Source of the DNA: Bacteroidota bacterium
Lineage (GTDB): Bacteria; Eisenbacteria; RBG-16-71-46; SZUA-252
Length of the DNA stretch: 64,000 bases
Direction of reading: 5' to 3'
Assembly (NCBI GenBank): GCA_050257045.1
Contig: JBLMWD010000118.1
Coordinates: 34,356 to 98,355 of the forward strand
Numbering within the stretch: position 1 is the first letter of the stretch; the number at the start of each line of letters is the position of its first letter. Positions 6,429 to 51,360 of this stretch are shown here, in pieces. Made by a program: the position numbers and the translations under genes. A model generated the notes under the pieces. It was given only the letters and a program-made list of their open reading frames with translations, had not been told where the DNA came from and ran no database searches.

Positions 6429-7829
6429 CTACCAGGAACGTTCCAGGACCGTGCACACCACGTGGCTGCCGACGCCCGCGTGCGAGATCGCCATTCCGCG
6501 CCGCGGGTTCTGCACCTGCAGGCTCTTCCAGTCGGCGGGTTTCTCCTTGCCGTAGCGCTCCCAGAGCTTCGGATCGCCGTGGAACTGGTCGTATTTCCCC
6601 TGCAGCTGCCAGAAGACCTCGCCCGCCTGGAAGATGCCGGTCGCGCCGACCGCGTGCATCGTCCCGAGCAGGCCGCCCGAGAGATTCGACGGGCACTTGC
6701 CCGGCTTTCCGGTCTTGGGATTGTCGAGGTAGCAATCGCCGGAGGTGACGTAGTCCTGCTCCCTGCCGTAGAGCGTGAGGCCGACGTCGCCGTAGGTCTG
6801 GAGGTCGGAGATCGTGAACGCGTCGTGCGTCTCGACCAGGTCGAGGTCCTCGATCGGATTCTTCACGCCGGCCATCCCGTACGCCATGTAGGCGGCGAAG
6901 CGCGTCGCGCCGAAGCTCTCGAACCCCGGCCAGCGCCCGTCGGCCTTCTCCATCTCCTTGTAGAGGGAGCGGTACCCTTCCTCGGTCTCGTTCGGGAGAA
7001 GGAGGATCCGCATCGGCCGCCGGTCGCCCGCGCGGAGCGTGTGCGAGCCGCCCGCGGCGTAGACGCGAACCGGGTGGTCGCTGAGCTTGTGGGCGACCTC
7101 CTCGGAGCAGAGGAGGACGGCCGAGGAGCCGACGCTCATCGCGCAGCATTCGAGGAAGCGGAGCGGGTCGGAGACGATCTCGCCGCTCAGCACCTCGTCG
7201 ACCGTGTGCTTGCCGGCCTGCTGGGCATAGGGCGAGAAGCGGGCGTACCCGCGGTTCTTCACCGCGATCTCGGCGCGCACGCGCTCGTCCACGTGGTACA
7301 TCTCCTGGAAGCGCCGCGCCATCGGGGCGTAGTAGCTCGCGTAGTTCCGCGCGAGGCGCGTCTCGAAGTCCTTGCAGGCGGCCGAGGCGATGTAGTAGTT
7401 CCCCGTCCAGGTCTTCACCTCGTCCATCCGCTCCCACCCGAGCACCAGCGTGCAGTCGGCCATGCCGCTCGCCACCGTGGTCGCGCCCATCAGGAGGGTG
7501 GAGCCGCCGGTCGCGCCGCCCGTCTTGATCCCCACGTTCGGGAGCGGATCGAGCCCCAGGTAGTCGTGGACCTTGGCCTCGCAGAGGAGCTGGTCCTGGA
7601 AGTGATCGGCGAACTCGCCGTAGCAGGCGAAGTTGATCAGCCCCTTCACCTCGAGCGGATCGAGCTTGAGGTCGTTCTCCTCGAGCATCATCCGGAACGC
7701 CATCATGGCCAGCTCGTCCAGCTTCTTCTCCGGATACCGCTTCCGGAAATCGCTGGTCCCCGCCGCGACCATGTAGACGGGCCGGGTCCACTTGGGAATG
7801 CGTAGATTGCCCTGCTTGAATTCGATCAT
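6429..7829 (-). CDS. Thiolase-like (SCP-x type) acetyl-CoA C-acyltransferase domain protein
   Basis: 466 aa. Thiolase fold motifs (GGATGGSTLLMGA..., CAMSVGSSAVLL, GGLLGTMHAVGATG). Paired with the DUF35 gene. Confidence 0.85.
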   Translation of the reverse strand: MIEFKQGNLRIPKWTRPVYMVAAGTSDFRKRYPEKKLDELAMMAFRMMLEENDLKLDPLEVKGLINFACYGEFADHFQDQLLCEAKVHDYLGLDPLPNVGIKTGGATGGSTLLMGATTVASGMADCTLVLGWERMDEVKTWTGNYYIASAACKDFETRLARNYASYYAPMARRFQEMYHVDERVRAEIAVKNRGYARFSPYAQQAGKHTVDEVLSGEIVSDPLRFLECCAMSVGSSAVLLCSEEVAHKLSDHPVRVYAAGGSHTLRAGDRRPMRILLLPNETEEGYRSLYKEMEKADGRWPGFESFGATRFAAYMAYGMAGVKNPIEDLDLVETHDAFTISDLQTYGDVGLTLYGREQDYVTSGDCYLDNPKTGKPGKCPSNLSGGLLGTMHAVGATGIFQAGEVFWQLQGKYDQFHGDPKLWERYGKEKPADWKSLQVQNPRRGMAISHAGVGSHVVCTVLERSW

Positions 7830-7995
7830 GAGCTCCTCCGGAGGATGTGGCGCGGCGCTCGAGGCCGTGGTTCACCCCGTCGGAGTCTAGCGAGGGGTTC
7901 CGGCGGTGGCCCCCCCTACGGAAGGACCACCCGGAGGTATCTCGATGGCTCCCCACGCGGCGGCGGAAGGGAATCGCGCGCGCGCCCGCTGCTAT

Positions 7996-8481
7996 GCTCT
8001 GCGCATGCCCGATCCGGCCGGCCTCATGCGCCAGCTCCGCGACCACGCCCTCCGCGCCACCGCCGAGGAGCTGGACCTCGCCCCGACCGAAGCGCGCCCG
8101 CGCGTCTGGGGCGCGCTCATGGAGCTCGGCTATCCCACCGGGATCGCCACGCTGATGACCCTCGCCGAGGGGACGACGAGCCTCTATTTCAGCAACGGCG
8201 GCGGGGTGATCGGGGCGGGAGAGCACGAGTCGGTGCGGGAAGCGGCGGAAGCCTTCCTCGACGCGGTCGAGGCGCAGCTCGCCGAATTCCGGCCGGTCGA
8301 GGAGACCCCGCGGCCGCGCATCGGGCGCGTGCGGCTCTACGTGCGGACGTTCGAGGGGACGCTCGGGATCGAGGCGACCGACGAGGAGCTGAGCCGGGGC
8401 GTCCATCCGCTCTCGGCCGTTTTCCACGCCGGCCACGCCGTGATCACGGCGATCCGGCTTTCCGGGGATCCACCGGGCTGA
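7996..8481 (+). CDS. Hypothetical protein
   Basis: Protein-like composition from internal ATG (MPDPAGLMRQLRDHALRATAEELDL...GIATLMTLAEGTTSLYFSNGGGVIGAGEHESV...). Competing ORFs are Arg-rich artefacts. Confidence 0.4.
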   Translation, partial: ALRMPDPAGLMRQLRDHALRATAEELDLAPTEARPRVWGALMELGYPTGIATLMTLAEGTTSLYFSNGGGVIGAGEHESVREAAEAFLDAVEAQLAEFRPVEETPRPRIGRVRLYVRTFEGTLGIEATDEELSRGVHPLSAVFHAGHAVITAIRLSGDPPG

Positions 8482-9499
8482 CCCCGCCCCGAATCACCCG
8501 CCGCACCCCGAGCAGCACCGTCAACGCGACGATCACGATGACCAGGACCCACACGCGTCCGATCCACGCGTTCAGCGAGGCGGCCACCGCGCGCTGATCG
8601 GCTCCCGCGTGGAGGGGATCGGCGAGGACGATCCAGTCCGCCGCGCGGAGCGAGAGCGAGAACAGCACGAGGAACATCCCGCCGAAGGCGGCGTGGGCGA
8701 TCTCGCGGAATCGCGCCCAGCCGGGCCGGACGAGGTTGACCAGGGACGGGATCAGGCTCGCGGCCACGAGGACCAGGAACGGTGTGTAGAACGCGTTCCA
8801 GGCGGGCCCCATCCGCAGGAACCCGATCGCCTCGGGGCTGAAGATCGAGCGCACGACGTGTCGCACGGCAAGCCACCAGAGGAAGCCGACGATGCCGATG
8901 GTCAGCTCGAACACCGAGAGTAGCCGAGGCACCCGCGGGTAGGCCTTTCCGACGACGTGGATGGCAAGGGCGTCGAGCCCCCGCGCCCGGGGAGCCTCCG
9001 CCCGCGCCGGGAACGGAGCGCCGGTCGCGGGATCCCACTGGTCCGGATGCTTCGTCAGCCGCATCTGTGCGCCGACGAAGATGGCCGTCACGAGCGTGAA
9101 CTGGACCACGACGTTCCAGAGAACGGCGGAGAGGACCGATCCGAGGCCGTGCCGCGAGACCGACAGGGCGACCGCCGCGGCCAGCACGACGGCGGTCACG
9201 ATGCCGTTGATCGTGAGCACCTTGGCGTAGATCGGAAATAGCTCCGGCCCGATCCATTGCCGGCCGAAGGAAAGGGTCCCCCGCTCGCCGCGATACCGGC
9301 TCGCCACGATCATCGGGTGCCCGTGCGCCTTGAGGATCGCCTCCTGGTCGGCGCGCGTGAGCGGGTGCCCGATCTCCGCCTCCTTGTCCTCCATCTGCGA
9401 GCGGAGATTGTCCGAGAGCTCCCGGACGATGTCGTCACGCTGGTCCTTCGGCAGATTGGCTCTGACGACGCGCAGGTATTGCTCGAGCAATTCCATCAC
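8444..9499 (-). CDS. Membrane protein with N-terminal HAAS/DUF1700-like cytoplasmic domain (PadR-associated sensor-type partner)
   Basis: MMELLEQYLRVVRANLPKDQRDDIVRELSDNLRSQ is the helical domain typically encoded after PadR regulators, followed by 6 or more TM helices. ATGA overlap with the upstream PadR gene. Confidence 0.65.
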   Translation of the reverse strand: MMELLEQYLRVVRANLPKDQRDDIVRELSDNLRSQMEDKEAEIGHPLTRADQEAILKAHGHPMIVASRYRGERGTLSFGRQWIGPELFPIYAKVLTINGIVTAVVLAAAVALSVSRHGLGSVLSAVLWNVVVQFTLVTAIFVGAQMRLTKHPDQWDPATGAPFPARAEAPRARGLDALAIHVVGKAYPRVPRLLSVFELTIGIVGFLWWLAVRHVVRSIFSPEAIGFLRMGPAWNAFYTPFLVLVAASLIPSLVNLVRPGWARFREIAHAAFGGMFLVLFSLSLRAADWIVLADPLHAGADQRAVAASLNAWIGRVWVLVIVIVALTVLLGVRRVIRGGVSPVDPRKAGSP

Positions 9500-9858
9500 C
9501 GATTCTCCTTCACGATCCGGACGACGGAGGCGTGGATCCGCTGCATCTCATCGCACAGGAGGCCGAGGATCCGCTTTCCTTCCGCCGAGAGCCGGTAGAA
9601 ACGCTTGTTCCGCTTGTCCTCCTCCCGCCATTCGCTCTCCAGCAGCCCCTGCGACTCGAGACGCCGGAGGAGCGGGTAGAGCGTGTTCTCCTCGATGTCG
9701 AGGCCCTGCTCGGCCAGCGCCCTCCGGAGGGCGTAGCCGTAGCGCTCCTCGCGCAGATGGGCGAGCACGGCGACGATCAACGTGCCGCGGCGCAGCTCCA
9801 GGCGGAGGTTCTCGAACAGCTCAGAGTCGGTCTTCTGGGCGCGGTTCATGTGTACCAC
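9496..9858 (-). CDS. PadR family transcriptional regulator
   Basis: LIVAVLAHLREERYGYALRRALAEQGLDIEENTLYPLLRRLESQGLLESEWREEDKRNKRFYRLSAEG is the canonical PadR winged helix. GTG at 9858 or ATG at 9849. Confidence 0.85.
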   Translation of the reverse strand: MVHMNRAQKTDSELFENLRLELRRGTLIVAVLAHLREERYGYALRRALAEQGLDIEENTLYPLLRRLESQGLLESEWREEDKRNKRFYRLSAEGKRILGLLCDEMQRIHASVVRIVKENR

Positions 9859-9879
9859 ATACTGTATACCACACAGTAT
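9859..9879. promoter_or_regulatory. Perfect inverted repeat ATACTGT-N7-ACAGTAT immediately upstream of the PadR start; candidate PadR autoregulatory operator
   Basis: Read directly: catgtgtaccacATACTGTataccacACAGTATtgtttg. It is an AT-rich island in GC-rich DNA, and the palindrome geometry resembles PadR operators. Confidence 0.45.
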
Positions 9880-10012
9880 TGTTTGTCAAGAGGGGCGCGG
9901 CTCAGTGCTACCAAGGGCGCATTGTGGGTTGGCGCCCGCCAGCCGATGCTCCGCGCACGGGGGGACATCGGCAGACCTCGTTCACGGCATCCGGTCCGAG
10001 GAGGTATCCCCC

Positions 10013-17622: not shown

Positions 17623-18630
17623 CTAATCGGAATCAGGGCCCCAGTAGTGCCGGTAATCGGTCGGGATCGTCAGGACCGCGCTCGGCACCGTGCTCGTCTG
17701 GATCGAGATGAACGGCCCCTGCCACGTGTCGGCGCGATACCAGTCACCGTTGTCGACGAGGTACCACGTGTTCCCGAAGCGGTACATGTCGTAGCCGGAA
17801 TTCCCCTCGACGAAGTAGACGCTCGTGTTGGGGATCATGTACGAGCTCGGCAGCGTCGTGAACGTCCGGCCCGACGACCAGTAACGCACGCCGTAGGACC
17901 GGTTGTAGTCGTCACGGTCGCCCGTGGGCCGGTCGCGATCGCCCATGGACCGGTCGCGGTCGGAGTCGCGCTGGTACATGGCCGGCGCGTTCGACCAGTT
18001 ATGCCGGTAGGACGTGGGGAGATTCAGGATGTCGCGCGGCACGCTGCGCGTCCGGATCGTCAGGAACGGGCCGCGCCACGTGGTGGAGCGATACCACTGG
18101 CCGTCGTCCACGAGGTACCACGTCCCATGGAGCCGGTAGAGGTCGAATCCGCTCACGCGCGTGGCGAACCGGACCGACGAACCGGGGACATAGGCCATTT
18201 CCGGCTTCCGGTTGAACGTGCGCCCCGACGCCCAGTAGCCCTGGGGCAGGTCGCGGTAGCGGCTGTCGCGGTAGTCGGGCCGGACGGCGACCCAGTTCCG
18301 GCGGTACTGAGCCGGGACGGTCGTCACTTCGTACGGCAGCACGTCGGCATCGATGGCGACGAACGGCCCGCGCCACGAGTCGGCGCGATACCAGGTGTTG
18401 TTCTCGTTCAGATACCAGGTCCCCTGGAACTGATAGACGTCGTAGTCGGTCGCGTCGCGCCCGTAGTAGACGTCGGTGTCGGCGACCCGGACCATCGCCG
18501 GCTGGCTGTAGAAGCGGTGCCCGGAATAGCTGAAGTCGGTCTCCGCCCGCTGGGCGGAGCAGCCGGTCATCGAGGCCAGGAGGAGTGAGCCGAGCATCGT
18601 TCCCCAGGCCCAGAAAGCGGTTCGTTTCAT
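17623..18630 (-). CDS. Lipoprotein composed of three tandem ~100-aa Trp/Tyr-rich repeats (unknown domain)
   Basis: Lipobox LLLASMTGC. Units 1-3 share Y(Q/R/M)FxGTWYLxxxxxWYRAD(S/T)W(R/Q)GPFxxIxxxxVP...P(A/T)xYRxxW. Confidence 0.65.
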   Translation of the reverse strand: MKRTAFWAWGTMLGSLLLASMTGCSAQRAETDFSYSGHRFYSQPAMVRVADTDVYYGRDATDYDVYQFQGTWYLNENNTWYRADSWRGPFVAIDADVLPYEVTTVPAQYRRNWVAVRPDYRDSRYRDLPQGYWASGRTFNRKPEMAYVPGSSVRFATRVSGFDLYRLHGTWYLVDDGQWYRSTTWRGPFLTIRTRSVPRDILNLPTSYRHNWSNAPAMYQRDSDRDRSMGDRDRPTGDRDDYNRSYGVRYWSSGRTFTTLPSSYMIPNTSVYFVEGNSGYDMYRFGNTWYLVDNGDWYRADTWQGPFISIQTSTVPSAVLTIPTDYRHYWGPDSD

Positions 18631-18880
18631 GGGAGCTATCCTCATCCCTCGAGGCCCGCGCTACGTGGATCCCCGAGGTGGTTGTACTTGCGCTCGCACC
18701 TGCAGGCCCCGGACTACAAACCAGGGCCGCCGCCTCGTTGCGCGCCAACGGCTTTCGTCGCCGCGCCCGGGGCGGAACGGCACGCGCGGATACAATGCAG
18801 GGCCCGTGCCGCTCCCGTTGATTTCGAGGAGCGCCCGCCCCTAGACTGCGGCCCGTCCACCGATCCCCCAAGGAGGGCCC

Positions 18881-19816: not shown

Positions 19817-20117
19817 AAAAGGCTCCTTGATGGTCCGTCCCTCACGGCTGGGGACGACACGTCTCACTTGCCCTCATTGCCGCCCTGGTGTGCTCCGGGA
19901 TTTCCCGGCGCCGCCGCACATCGCGGCTTCTGACTATCACGAGAAGCAATCGCCGGACCACTGGAGCCCGGCCGGTGCAGACGGCGCCATGGTCGTGAGT
20001 TGCGCCGGAGAGGGGGTGATGGCATGGGTCGCCGCCTCACTCCCGCACGTCCGACCTTTGTACTCTTGGACCTGCAGGAAGGCCGGGAAAAGGGCGAGTA
20101 CCCGCGCGTCGGGTCTT

Positions 20118-20726
20118 CTACGGAGCGGCGAAAGCAACTCCCTTCACCTGCACTTCCTGCGAATCGGCAACCTTCAGGAAGAGGAACTGGGGCCGGCTGA
20201 TCTGGTAGTCGGAGAGTCCCACGGGGAATGTCGTCTGGAAGGTGATCTCGCCCGCCTTTTCCTTGGGGAGGTACGTGGCCTGGACGGTGAGCCGGATCCT
20301 CCGGCTCACCCCGTGGAGCGTGAACGTCCCCTCCACGTCGAGCGGCGTCGGCTTTCCCGGCTCGAGGGCGCCCGGAGCGTGGAGCGCGACCCCGTCGAAG
20401 ACGGCCTTGGGGTACTTGGCCGTTTCGAGGTGGTCCTCGCGCATGTGCTGGTTCCGTTTCGCGATTCCGGTGTCCAGGCTCGCGAGATCGACCTCGAAAT
20501 GGACCGCGGCGGAGTCGCCGAGACGGGCGGGATCGACCTCGATCCGCCCCTCGATCCGGTTCGTCTTGCCTTCGAACTTCTCCATCGGCGCGCGCGAGAC
20601 GAAGACGACCTTGTTGTCACCGCCCGGATGAACCACGAACGTCGCGGCCGCGCCGGCGCGCGGAGCGACGCTGATCGCGAGCGCCGCGATCAGCGCCGTC
20701 GCCTGGAGTATGGAGAGCCGTTTCAT
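20118..20726 (-). CDS. YceI family periplasmic polyisoprenoid-binding protein
   Basis: Signal peptide. KVVFVSRAPMEKFEGKTNRIEGRIEVD...TFTLHGVSRRIRLTVQA... is the YceI-like lipocalin fold. Confidence 0.85.
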   Translation of the reverse strand: MKRLSILQATALIAALAISVAPRAGAAATFVVHPGGDNKVVFVSRAPMEKFEGKTNRIEGRIEVDPARLGDSAAVHFEVDLASLDTGIAKRNQHMREDHLETAKYPKAVFDGVALHAPGALEPGKPTPLDVEGTFTLHGVSRRIRLTVQATYLPKEKAGEITFQTTFPVGLSDYQISRPQFLFLKVADSQEVQVKGVAFAAP

Positions 20727-20741
20727 ACGAGCCTCGCTTCT

Positions 20742-21839
20742 TCAGTAGAGGAGATGGAGCTGGACGACCGTCTCCGTGAAATCCCTTCCGCTCAGGGCCG
20801 GGCCGTCGTCGAACGCCGTGTGACGCACGAGCGCCTCGAACGTGGCGTACGCGCGGGGCATCACGTACACGCCCCCGCCCCAGCGCCATTTCGAGCCGGA
20901 GGCCACCTCCCGGTCGGGATCGAGAAAGTCGTACGTACCAAGGAGCTCGAGCCCCTGGCGGAGCAGGATGGAGACCTCGTGGGACGTCACGAACCCGATC
21001 GACGCCCCGGCGCCTGCGGGCCTGGTCTGGAAGTAATCCCCCTCGGCGAGCCACGTGAGCCGGCTCCAGGTCAGGTAGCCGTATCCGCCCCATGTATCGA
21101 AATCGCGCGTGAATCCGGGCTGGTGGTAGCCGGAGGCGCCGAGCGCCGCCGCCGCGGGGCCGAGCCGCTTCCGATAGAGCGCGTTCACCACCCCCGCCAC
21201 CTTCGTGTCGTTGTCGAAGAGGGCGCCTCGGCTGCCGTTCACGACGCCGGCCGTCACGTCCAGCGGCCCCTTCGAGAATCCGGCCTCGAGCCCCACATCG
21301 CTGAAGCCGGGCGGCATGAATCCGAGCTCCGCGCGGACGTACATCGTGTGGTCGTCGAACCGCCACCCGTAGGAGGGCACGAATCGGCCGGCCTTCACGT
21401 AGAGGACCGGGAGGAGGTAGTCGAGTCCGAACATCTCGTAGTTCCCCGTCTCGCCGCGGTCGTAGTAGAGGGCCACGGTCGAGTCGAGCTGGAACGCGAG
21501 ATCGAGGTCGGCCTGCATCTGGAAGAAGTTCAGATGATCCGCCGCCAGGTTCGAGCCGATGTAGGTCTCGCGAAAGTCGGCCCCCACCTGGATCCTCCGC
21601 GCGAGCCCCGTGTCGAGATCGCTCAGGGGCGGGAGCTTCCCGCGCCGCCACGCGATCTCGTCGGGAATGAGCTTCTGGGTCGCGTACGACGTCCGCATCC
21701 CGTCGCCCGAGGGGTTCACGTGACAGAGCGCGCACGTCTGCTGGTAGCGGGCGGCATAGCGCGGCAGCGCCTGCGCGCCGCGCGGTGCCAGGCCGCAGAG
21801 CGAGAGGAGCGCGATGGTGACGGCGGTCGCCCGGTTCAT
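20742..21839 (-). CDS. Outer-membrane beta-barrel protein with N-terminal CxxCH monoheme motif (Cyc2-like fused cytochrome-porin)
   Basis: Signal peptide MNRATAVTIALLSLCGLAPRGAQA, then YQQTCALCHVNPSGDGM right after cleavage. About 300 aa of alternating amphipathic beta-strands end in an aromatic residue (…VVQLHLLY). Confidence 0.6.
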   Translation of the reverse strand: MNRATAVTIALLSLCGLAPRGAQALPRYAARYQQTCALCHVNPSGDGMRTSYATQKLIPDEIAWRRGKLPPLSDLDTGLARRIQVGADFRETYIGSNLAADHLNFFQMQADLDLAFQLDSTVALYYDRGETGNYEMFGLDYLLPVLYVKAGRFVPSYGWRFDDHTMYVRAELGFMPPGFSDVGLEAGFSKGPLDVTAGVVNGSRGALFDNDTKVAGVVNALYRKRLGPAAAALGASGYHQPGFTRDFDTWGGYGYLTWSRLTWLAEGDYFQTRPAGAGASIGFVTSHEVSILLRQGLELLGTYDFLDPDREVASGSKWRWGGGVYVMPRAYATFEALVRHTAFDDGPALSGRDFTETVVQLHLLY

Positions 21840-21840
21840 C

Positions 21841-22815
21841 TCAGTTGTTCCTCGCGCCTTCGAGGATCCACTCGCGGATCGTCGCGATATCGGCCGACGG
21901 GAGCATCGGACCCCCCTCGGGCATGAGCTGTCCGTACTGCCCGGAGTTGGTGATCTTCCCGTAGAGGACGGAATTCGTGAGGTTGAACGGGATGACGGCC
22001 GGGCCGGGCGGATAGCCGCTCGGCTGCGTCAGGAGCACCGAGTAGCCCTCGGGATTGCCGAACACGTGGCATGCGGCGCAATGCAACTGGAAGATCGGCT
22101 GCACGTCGTTCACGAACGAGACCGACGTCGCGAAGCCCGCGACGGAGAAGTCGGAGAGCCCGGGGCCGAGCGAGACGCCGCACGCGTGGGCGAGGCCGGT
22201 CGTCGGCGCGAACTGCACCGTGACCGTGATCGAGCCCCCGGGCGGAATCATGGCCGGGCCGCCGCCCGAGAGGATCGTGAATTCTCCGCACGCCGCGACG
22301 ACGTTCGCGGCGAGCGGCTCGGTCCCCACGCTGAAGATCTGGAACGTGCGGGTCGCGGTATCGCCGGCCGCGAGCACGCCGAAATCGAGTGAGTCGGGCA
22401 CCGTGATGCCGCGGGCTCCCGTCGCCTGGAACGCCCCCGCCCCGAGCATCGGAACCCGCGGACAGTGCGGCCCGAGGTCGAGCTCGCAGGGGAAGGAACC
22501 GACGGCGCCGGGCCGGAAGCGCACTTGCACGACGACCGAACCCCCCGGCGGGATCGAGAAGGGGCCGCCGCCGGACGTCACCATGTACTCGGGACAGGCC
22601 ACCGTGGCGGCGCCCGTGAGGGGCGCCGTTCCATTGTTCGCGATCGTGAGGGAGCGCGTGGAGGAATCGCTCTGGGCCACCGTCCCGAAGTCGATCGTGG
22701 CCGCGGAGAGGGCCGCCTCGGGCTCGAGCCGGAGCGGTCTTCCCATGTCCGAGCATCCCGCCAAGGGAAGTGCCAGCAAGACGATGCGCAGGGCCGGCAG
22801 CGGTCGTGGTCTCAT
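21841..22815 (-). CDS. Lipoprotein with two Ig-like beta-sandwich domains and a C-terminal class I c-type cytochrome domain
   Basis: Lipobox LLALPLAGCS. Two repeated domains (IDFGTVAQSDSSTRSLTIANNGTAPL... / LDFGVLAAGDTATRTFQIFSVGTEPL...). C-terminus QPIFQLHCAACHVFGNPEGY...GQLMPEGGPMLPSADIATIREWI has CxxCH plus a Met ligand. Confidence 0.75.
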   Translation of the reverse strand: MRPRPLPALRIVLLALPLAGCSDMGRPLRLEPEAALSAATIDFGTVAQSDSSTRSLTIANNGTAPLTGAATVACPEYMVTSGGGPFSIPPGGSVVVQVRFRPGAVGSFPCELDLGPHCPRVPMLGAGAFQATGARGITVPDSLDFGVLAAGDTATRTFQIFSVGTEPLAANVVAACGEFTILSGGGPAMIPPGGSITVTVQFAPTTGLAHACGVSLGPGLSDFSVAGFATSVSFVNDVQPIFQLHCAACHVFGNPEGYSVLLTQPSGYPPGPAVIPFNLTNSVLYGKITNSGQYGQLMPEGGPMLPSADIATIREWILEGARNN

Positions 22816-22992
22816 TGTGCCCCCAGTACGGCCGAGGCGGATCCTCCGTGACTGGGGGAGGTTACGGAAAACGGCCTGGGGCCGCCGGGCGCGGCAGAAA
22901 GGGGGTTCCCGTGACCGGGGGCGGGCATCTAAGCTGTACACGCTTTAACTAGTGTTCTCCGTCGTCCACCACCCGAGTAGCGCAGGTCACCC

Positions 22993-23502
22993 ATGCAGCG
23001 AATCCCACTCGCTACACGACTGTTCCTGCTCTGTGCTCTGCTGAGCGCGGGGTGTGCCGTCTCCCATCCGATGACCCGTGTCGACGTCATCTCTCCGGTG
23101 ACCATGGCATCGGTCCCCGAGCCCGCTCCGGCTTCCGATATCCCGAGCATCGCCCCGCCCCTGAGCATTCCTCCGACCGTGGAACGTGAACCGCGCACGG
23201 TGCTCCGGCGTCACCGGGGCCAGGTCGGGGATGCCTCGTTCTACGACGCCTCCTTCAACGGCAGGACGACCGCGAGCGGCGACACGTACGATGAGCGGAA
23301 GCTGACCGCCGCCCATCCGACCCTCGCCCTCGGGACGCGCGTGCGCGTCACGAACCTCGAGAACGAGAAGAGCGTGGTCGTCGTCGTGAACGATCGGGGT
23401 CCCTACGTGACGGGGCGCATCATCGACCTCTCCCGGCGGGCCGCCCGCCTGCTCGGGTTCGTCGACGACGGCACCACGCGGGTTCGCGTCCAGCCGCTAT
23501 AA
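22993..23502 (+). CDS. rlpA: Septal ring lytic transglycosylase RlpA family lipoprotein (DPBB domain)
   Basis: Lipobox LLSAGCA. GDASFYDASFNGRTTASGDTYDERKLTAAHPTLALGTRVRVTNLENEKSVVVVVNDRGPYVTGRIIDLSRRAARLLGF matches the RlpA double-psi beta-barrel. Confidence 0.85.
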   Translation: MQRIPLATRLFLLCALLSAGCAVSHPMTRVDVISPVTMASVPEPAPASDIPSIAPPLSIPPTVEREPRTVLRRHRGQVGDASFYDASFNGRTTASGDTYDERKLTAAHPTLALGTRVRVTNLENEKSVVVVVNDRGPYVTGRIIDLSRRAARLLGFVDDGTTRVRVQPL

Positions 23503-26756: not shown

Positions 26757-29399
26757 TCAGTGCCCGCGCGGAAGCCAGTTCACGTAGACGGTCGTGACCG
26801 GCGCGTCGACCAGGTCGACATCGCGGCGAACCAGGAACCGCTGCCCGTCTGCCGACACCGCGTAATAGTGACCCGCAGGGTCGATGTTGTCGATCGACTG
26901 GCGGAAGAGCGCGTGCGGCGTCCCGAGCGTCATCGTGGGAGTCGCGCTCACGTCCACCGCCATGAGATCGCCGCTCGGTGCGAGGTAATAGAGCTCCCGC
27001 TCATCCCGGCGCCAGTGCGCGTCGCGGCCGCCCTGGCTCGAGACCTGGAGCTTCCCTCCGGAGCCGTCGATCGACTGGAGATAGATCTCGGAGCGCCCCG
27101 ATTCGGTGGAGGAGTAGGCGATCCACCGGTCGTCCGGGGAGATCGAGGGCTCCACGTCCCCCGCCGGGCCCGCGATGAGCGGATAGGGTTTCCGGGAGCC
27201 GTCGAGCGGGAAGACCCAGATGTCCCAGAGGGTCTTGGGCTCGCGGACGACTCCGACGAGGAATCGCCCGTCGTGGGACCAGTCGGTCGCGATGGCGCGC
27301 TCCGGGAGGTTGAAGAGAAGCGAGTCCGTTCCGGCACCCGACGAGCGCTTCAGGTAGATCCCCGAGGGTGGAATCCGGTCCGACGTGTAGACGATCCGCG
27401 ACCCGTCGGTGGACCAGAGCGGAGCGTAGTCGGACGCGGGATCGAAGGTCAGGCGCGTGCTCACGTTTCGGACGGCATCGACGATCCAGATGTCCACGTT
27501 GTCGCCGCCGAAGGTCGCCCCCACCCGCCGGCCGTCGGGCGCGAGGCTCAGGTTGAAGTACTCGCCGGGGTTGCCCGTGGCGCTGACCTCCTTTCCGGTG
27601 CGATCGACCCAGACCAGGTGCATCCGCCGTCCGGCGGCGCCGCCTCGGAAGACGAGCGTCGAGGGGGACGACGAGAAGTCGGCGTTGGAGCCGACGCCGC
27701 CGCCCACGGCGACGTCGTCCACGACGGGAAACGGGTCGCCCGTCAGGCGCAGGGAGCGCGCATCGAACGGCTGCGCGAGGAGCGACCGGTCGCGCGCGAA
27801 GAGGATGTAGCCGGGCTCCACGTATTCGATCCGTGAGTACGTCCCTCGGGCGAGCACCACGACCTTGGACGACCGGATGTCGCCCACCTTCAGAATGGTC
27901 TGATCGGCCCGGTTCGTGAGACCGAGGAACAGGAAGTGCCGCCCGTCGGGAAGAAAGTGAGGCCAGGCACTTCCGGTCTCACCATGGGCGTGGTCGAGCG
28001 TGGTCACGGGGCGCGGGTCGCCGCCTCCGGCGCTCACCATGCGAATGGAATCGGTCGGGCTCCCGTCGAAGAGGATGGCGTCGTCGCGGCTCCAGGTGCC
28101 GTCTCCCGCACTCTGCGATTCGCAGATCGTCTGGGGCGGGCCGCCCTGGACCGCGATCTTCTTGAGCTTCCCTTCCTGCATGAATCCGAGATAGCGGCTG
28201 TCCGGGGACCAGAACGGCCGCCGGGCACCCTCCGTCCCGGGGAGCGGCTGCGCATCCAGCGACCCGAGCGGGCGGAGCCAGATGTTCGAGCGACCCGTCG
28301 AATCGGAGGCGTTGTAGGCGACGTACCGGCCGTCGGGCGAGACCTTGGGGGTGTCGCCAAGGAGGATGCCCCGCGGCGTGGGCGCGAAGAACCGCAGCGG
28401 GACCGGCTCCGGCGGCCGGTTCGCCATCGTGAACCCTGCCACGCCGAGCATCACCGCCACGGCGGCGCCCGCGATCGTCCAGGCGAGCCGCTCCCGGCTC
28501 TTCCGGCGCGCCGAGACGGTCGCCGGGATGCCGGCGCGCGATCCCGCCTCAGCGACCCACTTGAGATCGAGGTGCACATCGCGCGCGGTCTGATAGCGGT
28601 CCTCGGGACTCTTTTCGAGGCACCGCATCACGACGCGCTCGAGCGCGGGCGGGATGACGGAGCGGATCGAGGAGATCGGCTGCGGCGTCTCGCGCAGGAT
28701 CGCGGCGATGAGACTCGCCTGGCTCTTTCCTTCGAACGGGCGGCGGCCGGACGCCATCTCGTAGAGCATCGCCCCGAACGAGAAGATGTCGCTCCGCGAG
28801 TCGGCTTCGGCGCCCTCGAGCTGCTCGGGCGACATGTACTGGAACGTGCCGACGATCGTCCCCTCGGCGGTGAGGGGGTGGCTCATGGTCGGCGAGGAGA
28901 GGTCGCGTGGCGCGGCGCCGAGCCCGGTCACGCGCGCGAGGCCGAAGTCGAGGAGCTTCGCGCCGCCTTTCGTGAGGACGACGTTCCCCGGCTTCAGGTC
29001 GCGGTGGACGAGCCCCTGGCGGTGCGCGCGATCGAGGGCGTCGGCGATCTGGACGCCGATCTGGAGCAGCTCGGGGAGCGGCAGGGCGCCGCGCGCGAGC
29101 CGTTCGGCCAGCGACTCCCCCTCGAGGTACTCCATGACGAGGTAGTCCATCCCGTCCTGATGGCCGACGTCGTAGAGCGTGCAGATGTTCGGATGGTTGA
29201 GGCTCGAGACGATGCGCGCCTCGCGGTCGAAGCGCTGCCGCGTCTCGGGGCTCACGGCGAGATGCCCCTGCAGCACCTTGATCGCCACGGTGCGGTCGAG
29301 CCTCGTGTCGCGCGCGCGGTAGACCTCGCCCATGCCGCCGCTGCCGGCGAGCGCCTGGATCTCGTAGGCGCCGAGTCGGGTCCCTGGCTGGAGGGTCAT
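26757..29399 (-). CDS. Hanks-type Ser/Thr protein kinase with single TM segment and C-terminal TolB-like (PD40/WD40-like) beta-propeller
   Basis: Kinase motifs GSGGMGEVYRA, VAIK, HRDLKPGNVVL, DFGLAR, SPEQ. TM helix LAWTIAGAAVAVMLGVAGF. Repeated PD40-like units (SPDGRYVAY..., SPDSRYLGF..., STDGSRIVYTSD..., SPDDRWIAYSS...). Confidence 0.85.
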   Translation of the reverse strand: MTLQPGTRLGAYEIQALAGSGGMGEVYRARDTRLDRTVAIKVLQGHLAVSPETRQRFDREARIVSSLNHPNICTLYDVGHQDGMDYLVMEYLEGESLAERLARGALPLPELLQIGVQIADALDRAHRQGLVHRDLKPGNVVLTKGGAKLLDFGLARVTGLGAAPRDLSSPTMSHPLTAEGTIVGTFQYMSPEQLEGAEADSRSDIFSFGAMLYEMASGRRPFEGKSQASLIAAILRETPQPISSIRSVIPPALERVVMRCLEKSPEDRYQTARDVHLDLKWVAEAGSRAGIPATVSARRKSRERLAWTIAGAAVAVMLGVAGFTMANRPPEPVPLRFFAPTPRGILLGDTPKVSPDGRYVAYNASDSTGRSNIWLRPLGSLDAQPLPGTEGARRPFWSPDSRYLGFMQEGKLKKIAVQGGPPQTICESQSAGDGTWSRDDAILFDGSPTDSIRMVSAGGGDPRPVTTLDHAHGETGSAWPHFLPDGRHFLFLGLTNRADQTILKVGDIRSSKVVVLARGTYSRIEYVEPGYILFARDRSLLAQPFDARSLRLTGDPFPVVDDVAVGGGVGSNADFSSSPSTLVFRGGAAGRRMHLVWVDRTGKEVSATGNPGEYFNLSLAPDGRRVGATFGGDNVDIWIVDAVRNVSTRLTFDPASDYAPLWSTDGSRIVYTSDRIPPSGIYLKRSSGAGTDSLLFNLPERAIATDWSHDGRFLVGVVREPKTLWDIWVFPLDGSRKPYPLIAGPAGDVEPSISPDDRWIAYSSTESGRSEIYLQSIDGSGGKLQVSSQGGRDAHWRRDERELYYLAPSGDLMAVDVSATPTMTLGTPHALFRQSIDNIDPAGHYYAVSADGQRFLVRRDVDLVDAPVTTVYVNWLPRGH

Positions 29400-29446
29400 A
29401 AGAGTTAAGACGGTATCACAAAAACGTCGCAAGGGCGCTATATCGC

Positions 29447-29475
29447 TTGATTTAGGGGCGTGTTCGCGGTATAAT
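29447..29475 (+). promoter_or_regulatory. Sigma70-type promoter TTGATT-N17-TATAAT upstream of the giant S8 protease gene
   Basis: cTTGATTtaggggcgtgttcgcggTATAATcc has an exact -10 consensus, a 4/6 -35, and 17-nt spacer. It lies in the 249-bp divergent intergenic region, about 170 nt upstream of ATG 29648. Confidence 0.45.
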
Positions 29476-29647
29476 CCTCCCTTCACGCAAATCCCATCCC
29501 CCGTGGGTTCCGTTCGGCACGCTGACCGAGGAGGTGACCCCGCCCCAGGACCCCACCGTTCACCCCACGAGTGCATCCCGACGCATCGCGAACCATGCCC
29601 TAGCCGCGCTCGAGGCCGCGGCTCGAATCGTTCCATGGAGGTCAGGC

Positions 29648-37126
<7,479 letters not shown>

Positions 37127-37210: not shown

Positions 37211-39664
37211 CTACTTCACGACGGCGAATCGACCCCGGGCCGTCCCTTCGGCGGTCCGGAGCGTGTAGAAATAGATGCCCGACGCGAGGAAATTGCCGTT
37301 CTTGTCCCGGCCGTCGATCGCGAGCTTGTGGAATCCGGTGGGAAGGAGTGGAACCGGGATCGCCCGGATGAGCCTGCCGCGCGCATCGAAAACGCGAACC
37401 TCCACGGGGCCGGGCCGCGCCGTGCGGAACACCAGCGTGCCCGATGGATTGAGCGGGTTCGGGTAGACGCGCGGCGCCAGCCGGCCCACCCCTTCCCATT
37501 TCGCTTCGACCGCCGTCGGCACGCCCGCACCCTGGTTGTAGAGGATGGAGACCGTATTCGCGATCACGTTCGCCGTCACGAGGTCCGGCAGACCGTCCCC
37601 GTTCAGGTCGACGATGGCGACGCCGCTGGGGTTCTGCGACGCCTCGAAATCCATCCGCGGGCCGAAACGGCCGTCTCCCAAGCCGGGCAGGACGGAGACG
37701 CGGCTCGAGCCCGTGTTGGCCACGGCGAGATCCGGGATGCCGTCGTTCGTGAGATCGCCGGCGGTCACGTACGAGGGGTTGTAGCCGACGTCATAGGAGA
37801 CGGCCGTTGGAAATGCGCCCGTGCCGTTTCCCAACAGCACGGAGACGGTATTCCCGCTGTTGTTGGCGGTAACCAGGTCCAGATTGCCGTCACCGTTGAG
37901 GTCGATCATGCAGAGGCCGCGGGGCCGGCCGGGCACCGGGTACTGGCCCCTCACGCGGAGAATCCCGCTGCCGTCGCCCAGCAGGACCGAAACGCTGTTG
38001 CCGAAATTGGCCGTGACGACGTCCGGCTTCGCGTCGTGATTCACATCCCCGATGGCCACGCCGAACGATGGGCTCGTGGTGCTGTCCCGAGGCATGGACT
38101 GGAAGGTGCCGCCGCCGCGGCCCAGGTAGACGGAGACCGACCCGAGGTCTCCCGGCGCGCGGTTCCCGGATACAATGTCCGGCGTTCCATCCAGGTTCAG
38201 GTCGCCGATCGCCACCGCGAAGGGCGAATTGGCCACTCCCAGGTCGGTACGGGCTCGAAGCGTGCCGTCGCCGTTTCCGATCAGGACGGACAGGGTGTTG
38301 CCGCGCCAGTTCGCCGTGACCACGTCCATCGCCCCGTCCCCCGTCAAATCTCCGACGGCGACCGCTGTCGGGCCCAACCCCACGGGGTAATCGGTCCTCT
38401 TAAGAGACGGCTCTTCCTTGTTCTTCGACAGGACCGTGATGCTGTTTCCGGTATCGTTGGCGGTGATGAGATCCGGCGTGGCGCCGTTCAGGGTGCCGAC
38501 GGCGACCGCCCGGGTCCCATAACCCACTCCAACGTCTTCTCTCGTCACGAATCCGCCCGCACCGTCACCGTTGAAGACGAGAATGGCGTCGTTGTACAGG
38601 CTCGTCGTCGCCAGGTCGGCCTTGCCATCCCCGTCGAAATCCGCGACGCCGAGCCCATGGGCGACGGTCCCGATCTCGGTGTCGACTCTGGGCTGGAACG
38701 CGCCGCTTCCCGTGCCCAGGAGAACGGACAAGGTCATCGTGGTGTACTCGTTCGTCGTGACCAGGTCCACCTTCCCGTCATTGTTCATGTCTGCGATGGC
38801 GACCGAGCCGGGGTACCGGCCGGTCGCATAGTGCACCGCCGGCTGGAGAAATCCGGTGCCGTCGTTCAGGAGGATCGATACGTAATGCGAATCGAAACAG
38901 GGGACGGCGACGTCGGGCCTCCCGTCACCGTTCACGTCGCCGATCGCGACGTCGTTCGGGCTCACGCCGACAGCGTAGTCGACCCGCGTCTTGTGCGCCG
39001 GGCCGCCGCTGCTCGAGAGGAACACGGAGATGGTCCCGTCGATGTAGTTGGCGGTCACGACGTCGGAAATCCCGTCGCCGTCCAGGTCGCCCACGGCCAC
39101 CTGGATCGGTCCCCCCTCCGTGGCCCGGCTGAAGGCCGGCTCGAAGGCCCCACCGCCCGTTCCGATCAGCACCGAGGTCGTATCGGTGTTGAAGTTCGCG
39201 ACGACCAGGTCCGCGATCCCGTCTCCCGTCACATCCCCGATGGCAACCGCCTGTGCGCCGACCGTGTAATCGGTCCTCGCCTTGAAGCCTCCCGTTCCGT
39301 CGCCCAGCAACACGGAGACGCTCGTGTCGTTCGCCGTCACGATGTCCGGGGTCCCGTTATCGTCCAGGAAGCCCAGAACGATGCCGGAAGGGAATCCGTC
39401 GACCGGGAGGTTTGCCTTCAACTGGAACGCATCGTCTCCTGCGATGAGAACGGAAACATCCCCGGACGCGCTGTTCGCGCTCACGAGGTCCGGCAGCTTG
39501 TCACCATTGAGGTCGCCCATGGCCATCGCATAGGGCTGCAAGCCAATGGAGTAGGCGCGAGCCGCTCGGAACGAGAGCCCCGCGTCTGCCGCTGCCGGTG
39601 TGCTCATCAGGAGCAGGAACGCCATGTGCCAGGGGAGGGATTTCGCTTGGAAGATGGGGGGCAT
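37211..39664 (-). CDS. FG-GAP/VCBS repeat beta-propeller surface protein with T9SS type-A C-terminal sorting domain
   Basis: About 14 repeats of the (A/V)xGDxNGDGxxDLV... FG-GAP motif. C-terminus VYPNPLNPSGTLVFRTARPGPVEVRVFDARGRLIRAI...ASGIYFYTLRTAEGTARGRFAVVK matches the Por-secretion tail consensus. Confidence 0.85.
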   Translation of the reverse strand: MPPIFQAKSLPWHMAFLLLMSTPAAADAGLSFRAARAYSIGLQPYAMAMGDLNGDKLPDLVSANSASGDVSVLIAGDDAFQLKANLPVDGFPSGIVLGFLDDNGTPDIVTANDTSVSVLLGDGTGGFKARTDYTVGAQAVAIGDVTGDGIADLVVANFNTDTTSVLIGTGGGAFEPAFSRATEGGPIQVAVGDLDGDGISDVVTANYIDGTISVFLSSSGGPAHKTRVDYAVGVSPNDVAIGDVNGDGRPDVAVPCFDSHYVSILLNDGTGFLQPAVHYATGRYPGSVAIADMNNDGKVDLVTTNEYTTMTLSVLLGTGSGAFQPRVDTEIGTVAHGLGVADFDGDGKADLATTSLYNDAILVFNGDGAGGFVTREDVGVGYGTRAVAVGTLNGATPDLITANDTGNSITVLSKNKEEPSLKRTDYPVGLGPTAVAVGDLTGDGAMDVVTANWRGNTLSVLIGNGDGTLRARTDLGVANSPFAVAIGDLNLDGTPDIVSGNRAPGDLGSVSVYLGRGGGTFQSMPRDSTTSPSFGVAIGDVNHDAKPDVVTANFGNSVSVLLGDGSGILRVRGQYPVPGRPRGLCMIDLNGDGNLDLVTANNSGNTVSVLLGNGTGAFPTAVSYDVGYNPSYVTAGDLTNDGIPDLAVANTGSSRVSVLPGLGDGRFGPRMDFEASQNPSGVAIVDLNGDGLPDLVTANVIANTVSILYNQGAGVPTAVEAKWEGVGRLAPRVYPNPLNPSGTLVFRTARPGPVEVRVFDARGRLIRAIPVPLLPTGFHKLAIDGRDKNGNFLASGIYFYTLRTAEGTARGRFAVVK

Positions 39665-39761
39665 GGAGGACTCCCTATTCCGCGGGCCGCGGATCGCTTG
39701 GGAGAATACGCGCCCGGGTCCCATCGTCCTAGTGTCCCGGGGTATACCGACCGCTGCGGCG

Positions 39762-51207: not shown

Positions 51208-51360
51208 GGGGGGGGCCATTCCTTTCCGGACTCCGTGTCCTCGGTCGAGGTGGAGCTGTGGAGGGCCCATGCGCGACGGGGGGAGAACGGCTCGAGGTCG
51301 AGTCGGCGCGGTCACGGATGTTCCCTCTTGCCTGGGCGGCGAAATGCGCCCGATCGCAGG

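Follow-up and report, generated by a model that had tools for sequence, protein, structure and literature searches.

The subject of this analysis is a group of three genes on the minus strand of a 64,000-nucleotide stretch of DNA (hereafter the window) from contig JBLMWD010000118.1 of assembly GCA_050257045.1, a genome named in GenBank as a Bacteroidota bacterium and placed by GTDB in the Eisenbacteria. The genes, here called A, B and C, are arranged head to tail in that order and encode a lipoprotein with a cytochrome c domain, a predicted fusion of a c-type cytochrome segment with a porin, and a lipocalin of the YceI family, respectively (Table 1). An earlier note on this DNA had described them as a tight co-directional block, and the open reading frames (ORFs) bear this out: a single base separates the TGA stop of A from the ATG of B, and 15 nt lie between the stop of B and the ATG of the YceI gene, with GA-rich, ribosome-binding-like stretches ahead of the starts of both B and C. 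An alternative GTG start at 22941 would extend A to 366 aa, but the alignment with homologues of A starts at residue 1 of the 324-aa ATG form. A divergent gene encoding an RlpA-like protein (22993..23502, plus strand) lies upstream of A, and the 177 bp between the two genes are, from the gene layout only, the probable promoter region of a three-gene operon; a promoter scan detected no consensus sigma-70 site in it. A GC-rich hairpin with a weak T-tract (19952-19972, minus strand), some 150 nt beyond the YceI gene, could end the operon; such sites are no rarer in shuffled sequence and this one is not relied on. The G+C content of the window is approximately 69%.

Table 1. Coordinates, in window numbering, of the three genes and of the features predicted within and beside them.
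Feature	Position	Strand	Remarks
Gene A	21841..22815	-	324 aa; lipoprotein, two Ig-like domains and C-terminal monohaem cytochrome c domain
A signal peptide and lipobox (…LPLAGC, Cys21)	22753..22815	-	read from sequence; mature N-terminus CSDMG
A first Ig-like domain, residues ~31-116	22468..22725	-	choice-of-anchor D / HYDIN-VesB type
A second Ig-like domain, residues ~137-210	22186..22407	-	family profile matches
A cytochrome c domain, residues 230-324	21844..22128	-	alignment A6 of 48 domains
A CAACH, residues 246-250	22066..22080	-	haem motif
A Met298-Pro299	21919..21924	-	distal Met
Gene B	20742..21839	-	365 aa; predicted fused monohaem cytochrome-porin, Cyc2 sister family
B signal peptide, residues 1-24, ends AQA	21768..21839	-	read from sequence; homologues and canonical Cyc2 cut before x-P
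B haem-binding N-terminal segment (predicted), A24-LPRYAARYQQTCALCHVNPSGDGMRTSYA	21681..21770	-	in register with AVPSFARQTGxxCxxCH of Cyc2
B CALCH, residues 36-40	21720..21734	-	sole CxxCH of B
B 16-strand beta-barrel, residues 83-365	20745..21593	-	C-terminal aromatic residue
B strand 5-6 long loop, residues 154-180 (VPSYGWRFDDHTMYVRAELGFMPPGFS)	21300..21380	-	contains helix; most conserved barrel segment
Gene C	20118..20726	-	202 aa; periplasmic YceI-family lipocalin, signal peptide residues 1-27
A-RlpA intergenic region, probable operon promoter region	22816..22992	.	177 bp; gene layout

Protein B begins with a hydrophobic signal peptide which, by sequence reading and alignment, is in line with those of its homologues and of the canonical cytochrome-porin Cyc2. 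CALCH begins 12 residues into the mature chain; the earlier note had put it about 10 residues past the cleavage site, and while its position outside the signal peptide is upheld, the distance is corrected. The beta-barrel ending in Tyr that had been predicted from the sequence was recovered by AlphaFold2, whose model (predicted local distance difference test, pLDDT, 76; predicted template modelling score, pTM, 0.75) has 16 strands over residues 83-364, an OprP-type or general porin fold and the C-terminus ...HLLY. No Pfam or NCBIfam family matches B. Alginate-export, OmpW and other non-haem outer-membrane families, which had been named as possible alternatives, were rejected as no profile claims the protein.

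The haem motif and its surroundings are strongly conserved. C36, C39 and H40 are invariant in all 36 close homologues and in all 108 distant ones, which answers the question raised earlier of whether the CxxCH is kept in orthologues, and in the alignment of the close set (A1) the invariant positions extend to P26, R27, Y28, R31, Y32, N42, P43, G45, G47 and R49. Within the barrel, the strand 5-6 loop contains W159, D162, D163, H164, R169, P176 and P177, all of them invariant or almost invariant in A1, and in the distant set (A5) H164 is retained in 98 and R169 in 106 of the 108 sequences. This loop may form the constriction of the pore and a pocket for haem or iron, and its DDH164T stretch, together with M108 and H362, would supply candidates for a distal haem ligand or an ion site.

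Searches with B indicate that it belongs to a large family without annotation. A word-indexed search returned 285 clusters (90% identity) with E <=1e-3 among 8,000 candidates scored; the 120 clusters listed had either no name or the name 'hypothetical protein', none contained a Pfam domain, and those with a named source came from Candidatus Eisenbacteria and Krumholzibacteria. An exhaustive profile search extended the family to at least 1,676 clusters (50% identity) at E <=1e-3, with 241 at E <=1e-30. Among the 108 diverse members, P26, C36, C39, H40, G45, R49, G86, G151 and G158 are invariant, D88, R90, M108, H164, R169, E185 and H362 are retained in approximately 90% or more, and the N-terminal consensus is A-x-P-R-[FY]-[AS]-A-R-[TY]-G-x-x-C-x-x-C-H-V-N-P-[ST]-G-G-G-M-R. 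The suggestion that B represents a compact uncharacterised cluster is thereby borne out, in that it belongs to a separate, unannotated family for which neither Pfam nor NCBIfam has a model. Neither the family profile nor a profile of canonical Cyc2 gave anything useful when run against PDB sequences, and the B family alignment had no match there. Cyc2 itself has no solved structure. The OprP/OprO phosphate porins and the 16-strand general porins differ from B in lacking the N-terminal haem segment and are only 7-13% identical to it.

Cyc2 is defined by a signal peptide, one CXXCH and a 16-strand OprO/OprP-like porin, with the motifs AXPXFAR[Q/K][T/Y] upstream and PXL downstream of the CXXCH; its porin part is poorly conserved, the length cut-off used in FeGenie is 365 aa and most members have at least 400 aa (PMC8406198). 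The Cyc2 of Mariprofundus PV-1 is reported to oxidize Fe(II), with its haem at +208 mV (PMC8406198), and the N-termini published for verified Cyc2 proteins from Mariprofundus PV-1, Sideroxydans ES-1, Gallionella and Acidithiobacillus share the same motif and spacing (PMC9769843, Fig. S9). For comparison, a canonical set was defined by the motif P.FAR[QK][TY]...C..CH. A 60-aa query with the Cyc2 motif in tandem retrieved only canonical fragments of up to 105 aa, while a chimeric 472-aa query built from real fragments retrieved 120 full-length canonical proteins, mostly of 420-514 aa; 23 full-length proteins entered the profile.

Alignment of the 108 B-family members with these 23 proteins in hhalign gave a probability of 97.3% (E 2.6e-11, 120 columns), which remained at 95.6% (E 1.3e-8) when the signal peptides were removed and fell to 0.4% in a reversed control. 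The hidden Markov model (HMM) of the B family matched all 120 canonical proteins at 14-46 bits. In both families the signal peptide is cleaved just before x-Pro, and the haem motif is preceded in the same register by Ala at C-12, Pro at C-10, an aromatic residue at C-8, Ala or Ser at C-7 and Thr or Tyr at C-4. The two barrels align collinearly in the profile comparison, and a canonical protein modelled in the same way as B also had 16 strands, shared its long strand 5-6 loop and had the same ten porins as best matches. B shares with Cyc2 the signal peptide, a single CxxCH some 12 residues past the cleavage site, the OprP-like barrel of 16 strands and the aromatic end, and in both cases a gene for a periplasmic cytochrome c adjoins the porin gene. 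It differs in that its barrel is approximately 100 residues shorter (the whole protein has 365 aa, exactly at the FeGenie cut-off and under the usual size of Cyc2, against 420-514 aa) and in that D88, R90, M108, H164, R169, E185 and H362 are absent from the canonical set. Its hosts, Eiseniibacteriota, Krumholzibacteriota, Latescibacterota and Gemmatimonadota, are not classical iron oxidizers, and YceI, a constant neighbour of B, was absent from the canonical loci examined. We consider it very likely that B is a fused cytochrome-porin related to Cyc2; within the superfamily of such proteins it is a member of a sister family that lies outside Cyc2 as currently defined.

Protein A was described in the earlier note as a lipoprotein with two Ig-like domains and a class I cytochrome c domain, a description that holds for the lipoprotein and Ig-like parts and is supported by motifs for the cytochrome part. 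The lipobox reads LAGC, the Ig-like domains match PF22544 (E 1.9e-16) and NF012200, choice-of-anchor D (E 1.7e-22), and CAACH and Met298-Pro299 are both conserved in relatives. Pfam PF13442 matches the cytochrome domain of the window protein below its cut-offs (21.7 bits against a gathering cut-off of 27), at E 2.7e-3 with the whole protein and 2.7e-4 with the domain alone. At E <=0.01, 17 of the 48 aligned domains match Cytochrome_CBB3, 12 PSCyt1, 7 Cytochrom_C and 4 PccH. Since both Cys residues, the His, Met-Pro and a terminal W-I-x-x-G-A sequence are invariant throughout alignment A6, and since Pfam weakly matches the relatives, the C-terminal domain is read as a monohaem c-type domain. 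The haem motif is present in 47 of 47 homologous domains, as CxxCH, CxxxCH or CxxxxCH. The 12 non-standard motifs among them (CxxxCH at loci L002, L006, L007, L025, L028 and L060; CxxxxCH at L032, L037, L046, L051, L054 and L064) are still accompanied by the invariant distal Met-Pro. The lipobox and mature N-terminus L-A-G-C-S-D-L-G are common to 30 of 47 related lipoprotein ORFs, an unusual constancy which may mean that this stretch directs sorting, be it to the cell surface or to the periplasmic face.

Protein C matches the YceI family, PF04264, with an E value of 1.6e-25 (90.7 bits against a cut-off of 23.7) and has a signal peptide, in agreement with the earlier identification of the downstream gene. 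Its relatives of solved structure (5ixg, 5ixh, 1y0g, 2x32/2x34, 3hpe and 7bwl, the last being PA0423) include E. coli YceI, the BcnA-type lipocalins of Burkholderia and the X158 domain that binds ubiquinone-8; 2x32 and 2x34 are matched at E ~6e-6. YceI relatives that bind ubiquinone-8 and are linked or fused to cytochromes have been described in the LcoA-BcnA system (PMC9113575) and in Cbp2D/E (PMC8981238), and by analogy C probably carries an isoprenoid quinone. As in LcoA-BcnA (Naguib et al. 2022, PMC9113575), a periplasmic YceI-family lipocalin is here genetically coupled to a haem protein, with a bound isoprenoid quinone as the probable redox cofactor, but the haem partner in that system is an inner-membrane dihaem cytochrome b561, whereas here it is an outer-membrane cytochrome-porin together with a lipoprotein cytochrome c. 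Cbp2D and Cbp2E of Cellvibrio japonicus and Saccharophagus degradans (PMC8981238) likewise combine a YceI-like quinone-binding module with monohaem c-type domains outside the cytoplasm; they are secreted multidomain proteins with carbohydrate-binding modules, whereas the present locus encodes separate proteins and a haem-porin. A literature search, within the papers that could be searched, found no mention of YceI together with Cyc2.

The association of the three genes was followed in 64 loci from 64 species representatives of the Eiseniibacteriota, Krumholzibacteriota, Latescibacterota, Gemmatimonadota and unclassified metagenome-assembled genomes (MAGs), in which the identity of B to the window protein ranges from 73% down to 32%. 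In 52 of these loci a YceI gene follows B on the same strand within 400 nt, and in 3 more it lies upstream; contig ends cut 4 of the 64. The adjacency is kept down to 33% identity of B, and at least 44 loci have an A-type cytochrome domain next to the B module. Homologues of A are found directly upstream of B in 31, and in 12 more a cytochrome domain is encoded downstream of YceI; the closer relatives of B have the Ig-Ig-cytochrome lipoprotein upstream, while the distant ones have a lipoprotein of ~140 aa downstream of YceI. Among remote members of the superfamily, 4 of 5 examined adjoin cytochromes c, and 3 of those also a cupredoxin, with YceI absent.

Other genes recur in parts of this sample. 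At L074, L077 and L078 (P0210, P0189 and P0160) a protein of ~500 aa without Pfam match, a cupredoxin, the cytochrome-porin and a dihaem cytochrome c are clustered without YceI; a protein of 80-140 aa is added in two of the three, the dihaem cytochrome c gene is upstream of the porin gene in L078, and L077 additionally encodes a cytochrome P460. At L073, which is on a complete Eisenbacteria chromosome (OY970178.1), genes for a plastocyanin/halocyanin-like cupredoxin, a 319-aa protein with a type IX secretion system (T9SS) tail and a 137-aa cytochrome c (7825-9965) stand immediately upstream of those for the B homologue and YceI. A fourth gene is found in several distant loci beside those for B, YceI and cytochrome c (L046:3596-4471, L051:3764-4714, L052:~8140-9003, L054:3536-4468, L058:8074-8925, L061:7012-7902 and L063:8061-9152). 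Its product has a signal peptide, the sequence 'APGEGxCxxCH..FPLNSG', a choice-of-anchor V domain (NF041895, E 7.5e-32) and a FlgD-Ig/T9SS tail, and from these features it is probably a haem protein exported to the cell surface; it is absent from the window. De novo clustering of ORFs placed it in one heterogeneous cluster joined by the T9SS/FlgD-Ig tails, of which the choice-of-anchor V haem protein is only a part.

Together, A, B and C are likely to constitute an electron-transfer module, and we favour, with somewhat less confidence, the fuller explanation in which the Cyc2-sister haem-porin B, the cytochrome A and YceI move electrons across the outer membrane. In this scheme one c-type haem would be carried on the short N-terminal segment of B, fused to a 16-strand porin of the OprP type. 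A small soluble redox species would enter the pore and exchange electrons with this haem, held in or under the barrel near the DDH164T loop, M108 and H362. By analogy with Cyc2 the leading candidate for that species is Fe(II), although it is doubtful that Fe(II) is the physiological substrate. The electron would then pass to the monohaem domain of A, an outer-membrane-anchored cytochrome c which its two Ig-like domains might hold beneath the pore, and YceI, whose relatives carry ubiquinone-8 or other polyisoprenoids, could work in the periplasm as a quinone relay or sink in the direction of the inner membrane. We infer from these features a function in extracellular electron transfer and, with it, the attachment of haem, the location of the proteins, which way electrons flow, what the substrate is and what YceI does.

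Several observations weigh against this interpretation. Neither published motif of Cyc2 is found in B. The upstream sequence is ALPRYAARY, in which Ala, Pro, the aromatic residue, Ala and Tyr are in register but YAAR replaces FAR[QK] and the Arg is displaced by one position, such that the expression P.FAR[QK][TY] fails in B and in the whole B family. Instead of PXL, B has CALCH-VNPSGDG after the haem motif, the family pattern being HVNP[ST]GGG[ML]R against H..FP.L..FGR.FK in canonical proteins. B resembles Cyc2 in its fold, its CxxCH and its profile homology and departs from it in both motifs, so that B is Cyc2-like and not Cyc2. The HMM of the 23 canonical proteins scores only 14.8 bits on B, over residues 2-41, and a comparison of the barrel profiles alone was weak (10.9% probability, P 0.003, control 0.3), although the latter is in keeping with how poorly the porin part of Cyc2 is conserved. 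In the AlphaFold2 model, which bears out the expected barrel, the haem segment (residues 17-64) has a pLDDT below 50 and is placed relative to the barrel with low confidence. The Eisenbacteria MAG Dive96_bin2.117 is reported to encode a canonical Cyc2-like protein of the FARKY type and also carries a member of the B family (L029). The two families are therefore paralogous, and their coexistence in this one genome suggests that they have different jobs, with B acting on another substrate or in another role than canonical Cyc2. At the canonical loci examined, a cytochrome c gene is accompanied by genes for ccm or for cbb3 assembly, and YceI is absent. Within the 64 kb window, genuine CxxCH ORFs are limited to A and B, no oxidase, bc1, ccm or further cytochrome gene is found, and the B family itself is known from sequences alone.

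The constancy of YceI, the most frequent partner of B at 52 of 64 loci, could also point to an antioxidant system of the cell envelope, in which YceI quinol would quench lipid peroxyl radicals or oxidants and the two c-type haems would recycle the quinone or dispose of electrons, as an outer-membrane counterpart of the cytochrome b561 (LcoA) and lipocalin (BcnA) system. Lipocalins of the YceI family usually have a haem protein linked or fused to them, and BcnA, LcoA and PsrA protect Burkholderia from lipid peroxidation (PMC9113575); the YceI of the window matches the BcnA-type structures 5ixg and 5ixh as well as PA0423 (7bwl), and the hosts are apparently heterotrophs with no obvious respiratory partners nearby (PMC9769843). 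We nevertheless regard this explanation as unlikely, given that a purely periplasmic quencher needs no haem porin in the outer membrane and that no cytochrome b561 was found among the window neighbours or among the gene clusters conserved in at least 7 of the 64 loci. Moreover, the wider superfamily retains cytochromes c and cupredoxins as neighbours and not YceI, so that the conserved core activity would be electron transfer through the pore protein. That activity could also be directed outwards, with electrons passing from the inner-membrane quinone pool through YceI quinol and A to the haem of B and from there to Fe(III), humic substances or secreted oxidative enzymes, much as in the Cbp2D/Cbp2E route proposed to feed lytic polysaccharide monooxygenases. 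The X158 domain, which is YceI-like, binds ubiquinone-8, and occurs with c-type domains in the secreted Cbp2D/E, proteins important for growth on cellulose (PMC8981238), and its structures 2x32 and 2x34 are matched by the window YceI; a cell-surface end point would be consistent with the choice-of-anchor V haem protein and its T9SS tail in several distant loci and with the many T9SS cargo proteins encoded in the genome of the window. However, the surface haem protein is missing from the window and from the closer relatives, and the sole characterized relatives of B, the Cyc2 proteins, take electrons in (PMC8406198). One haem in a narrow pore of 16 strands also suits a soluble ion better than solids or enzymes, as Keffer et al. 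argue for Cyc2 (PMC8406198), and outward transfer appears improbable to us.

Were B an ordinary diffusion porin, its CxxCH would bind no haem and might serve as, for example, a metal site or a disulphide, and the neighbouring genes would be unrelated passengers. The general-porin fold and the absence of any Pfam or NCBIfam assignment would be compatible with this, but the two Cys, the His and about ten flanking residues are invariant in 108 diverse members, and the segment that contains them is homologous to the haem-c-binding segment of Cyc2. The linkage to cytochrome c and YceI persists to 33% identity across several phyla, and in the window the gaps between the genes are just 1 nt and 15 nt, all of which makes a haem-less porin with chance neighbours very improbable. 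The locus also resembles MtrCAB, MtoAB and PioAB, in which electrons cross the membrane by way of an outer-membrane barrel and c-type haem, with a lipoprotein cytochrome as partner. An Mtr-type complex was rejected, as those systems have a barrel of ~26 strands and a separate multihaem cytochrome while B combines 16 predicted strands with a single, fused haem motif; no multihaem ORF is present in the window.

The other genes around the three have no relation to respiration; among their products are an EamA transporter, a transglycosylase-associated protein, a beta-helix protein, DinB, a Ser/Thr kinase, a member of the LOG family and T9SS cargo proteins. Elsewhere in the window, a 340-aa lipoprotein without Pfam match (17623-18645, minus strand) contains three internal repeats of ~100 aa (…YDxYxxxGxWYLxxxxxWYRxxxWxGPF…), and a 970-aa protein (26757-29669, minus strand) looks, from its translation only, like a fusion of a Ser/Thr protein kinase with a TolB-like beta-propeller region. 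FlgD-Ig or Por_Secre_tail C-termini are found on three very large secreted proteins: a subtilase of 2,556 aa that also contains Ig-like and NIDO domains (29456-37126, plus strand), an FG-GAP repeat protein (37211-40084, minus strand) and a Big_9/He_PIG/PKD protein (48517-51360, minus strand). These C-termini indicate that the organism has a type IX secretion system.

In genomes and metagenomes, iron-oxidizing bacteria are searched for chiefly through Cyc2 as a marker gene. The B family is large, shares the architecture of Cyc2 and is remotely homologous to it, yet it fails the published Cyc2 motif filter, and A, B and YceI look like an undescribed route for electrons across the outer membrane of soil bacteria. 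It is possible, although we advance this only tentatively, that the route is a widespread and unrecognized conduit in which a haem-in-porin works obligately with a soluble, quinone-carrying YceI, such that electrons are taken through the periplasm by a lipid quinone and not by a chain of cytochromes, and through which abundant heterotrophs of soil and sediment (Eiseniibacteriota, Krumholzibacteriota, Latescibacterota and Gemmatimonadota) exchange electrons with iron or other extracellular redox species; surveys with Cyc2 motif filters, Pfam and NCBIfam would all miss it. If the B family does handle extracellular electrons, then iron and redox cycling by common uncultured soil phyla has been undercounted. 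For YceI, a protein family of debated function, the near-constant pairing with B points to a concrete role that can be tested and suggests a way of linking an outer-membrane haem to the quinone pool, while the DDH164T loop, M108 and H362 are direct targets for mutagenesis. The value of the finding lies in the size of the family, in its invisibility to current iron-gene markers and in this testable link to YceI.

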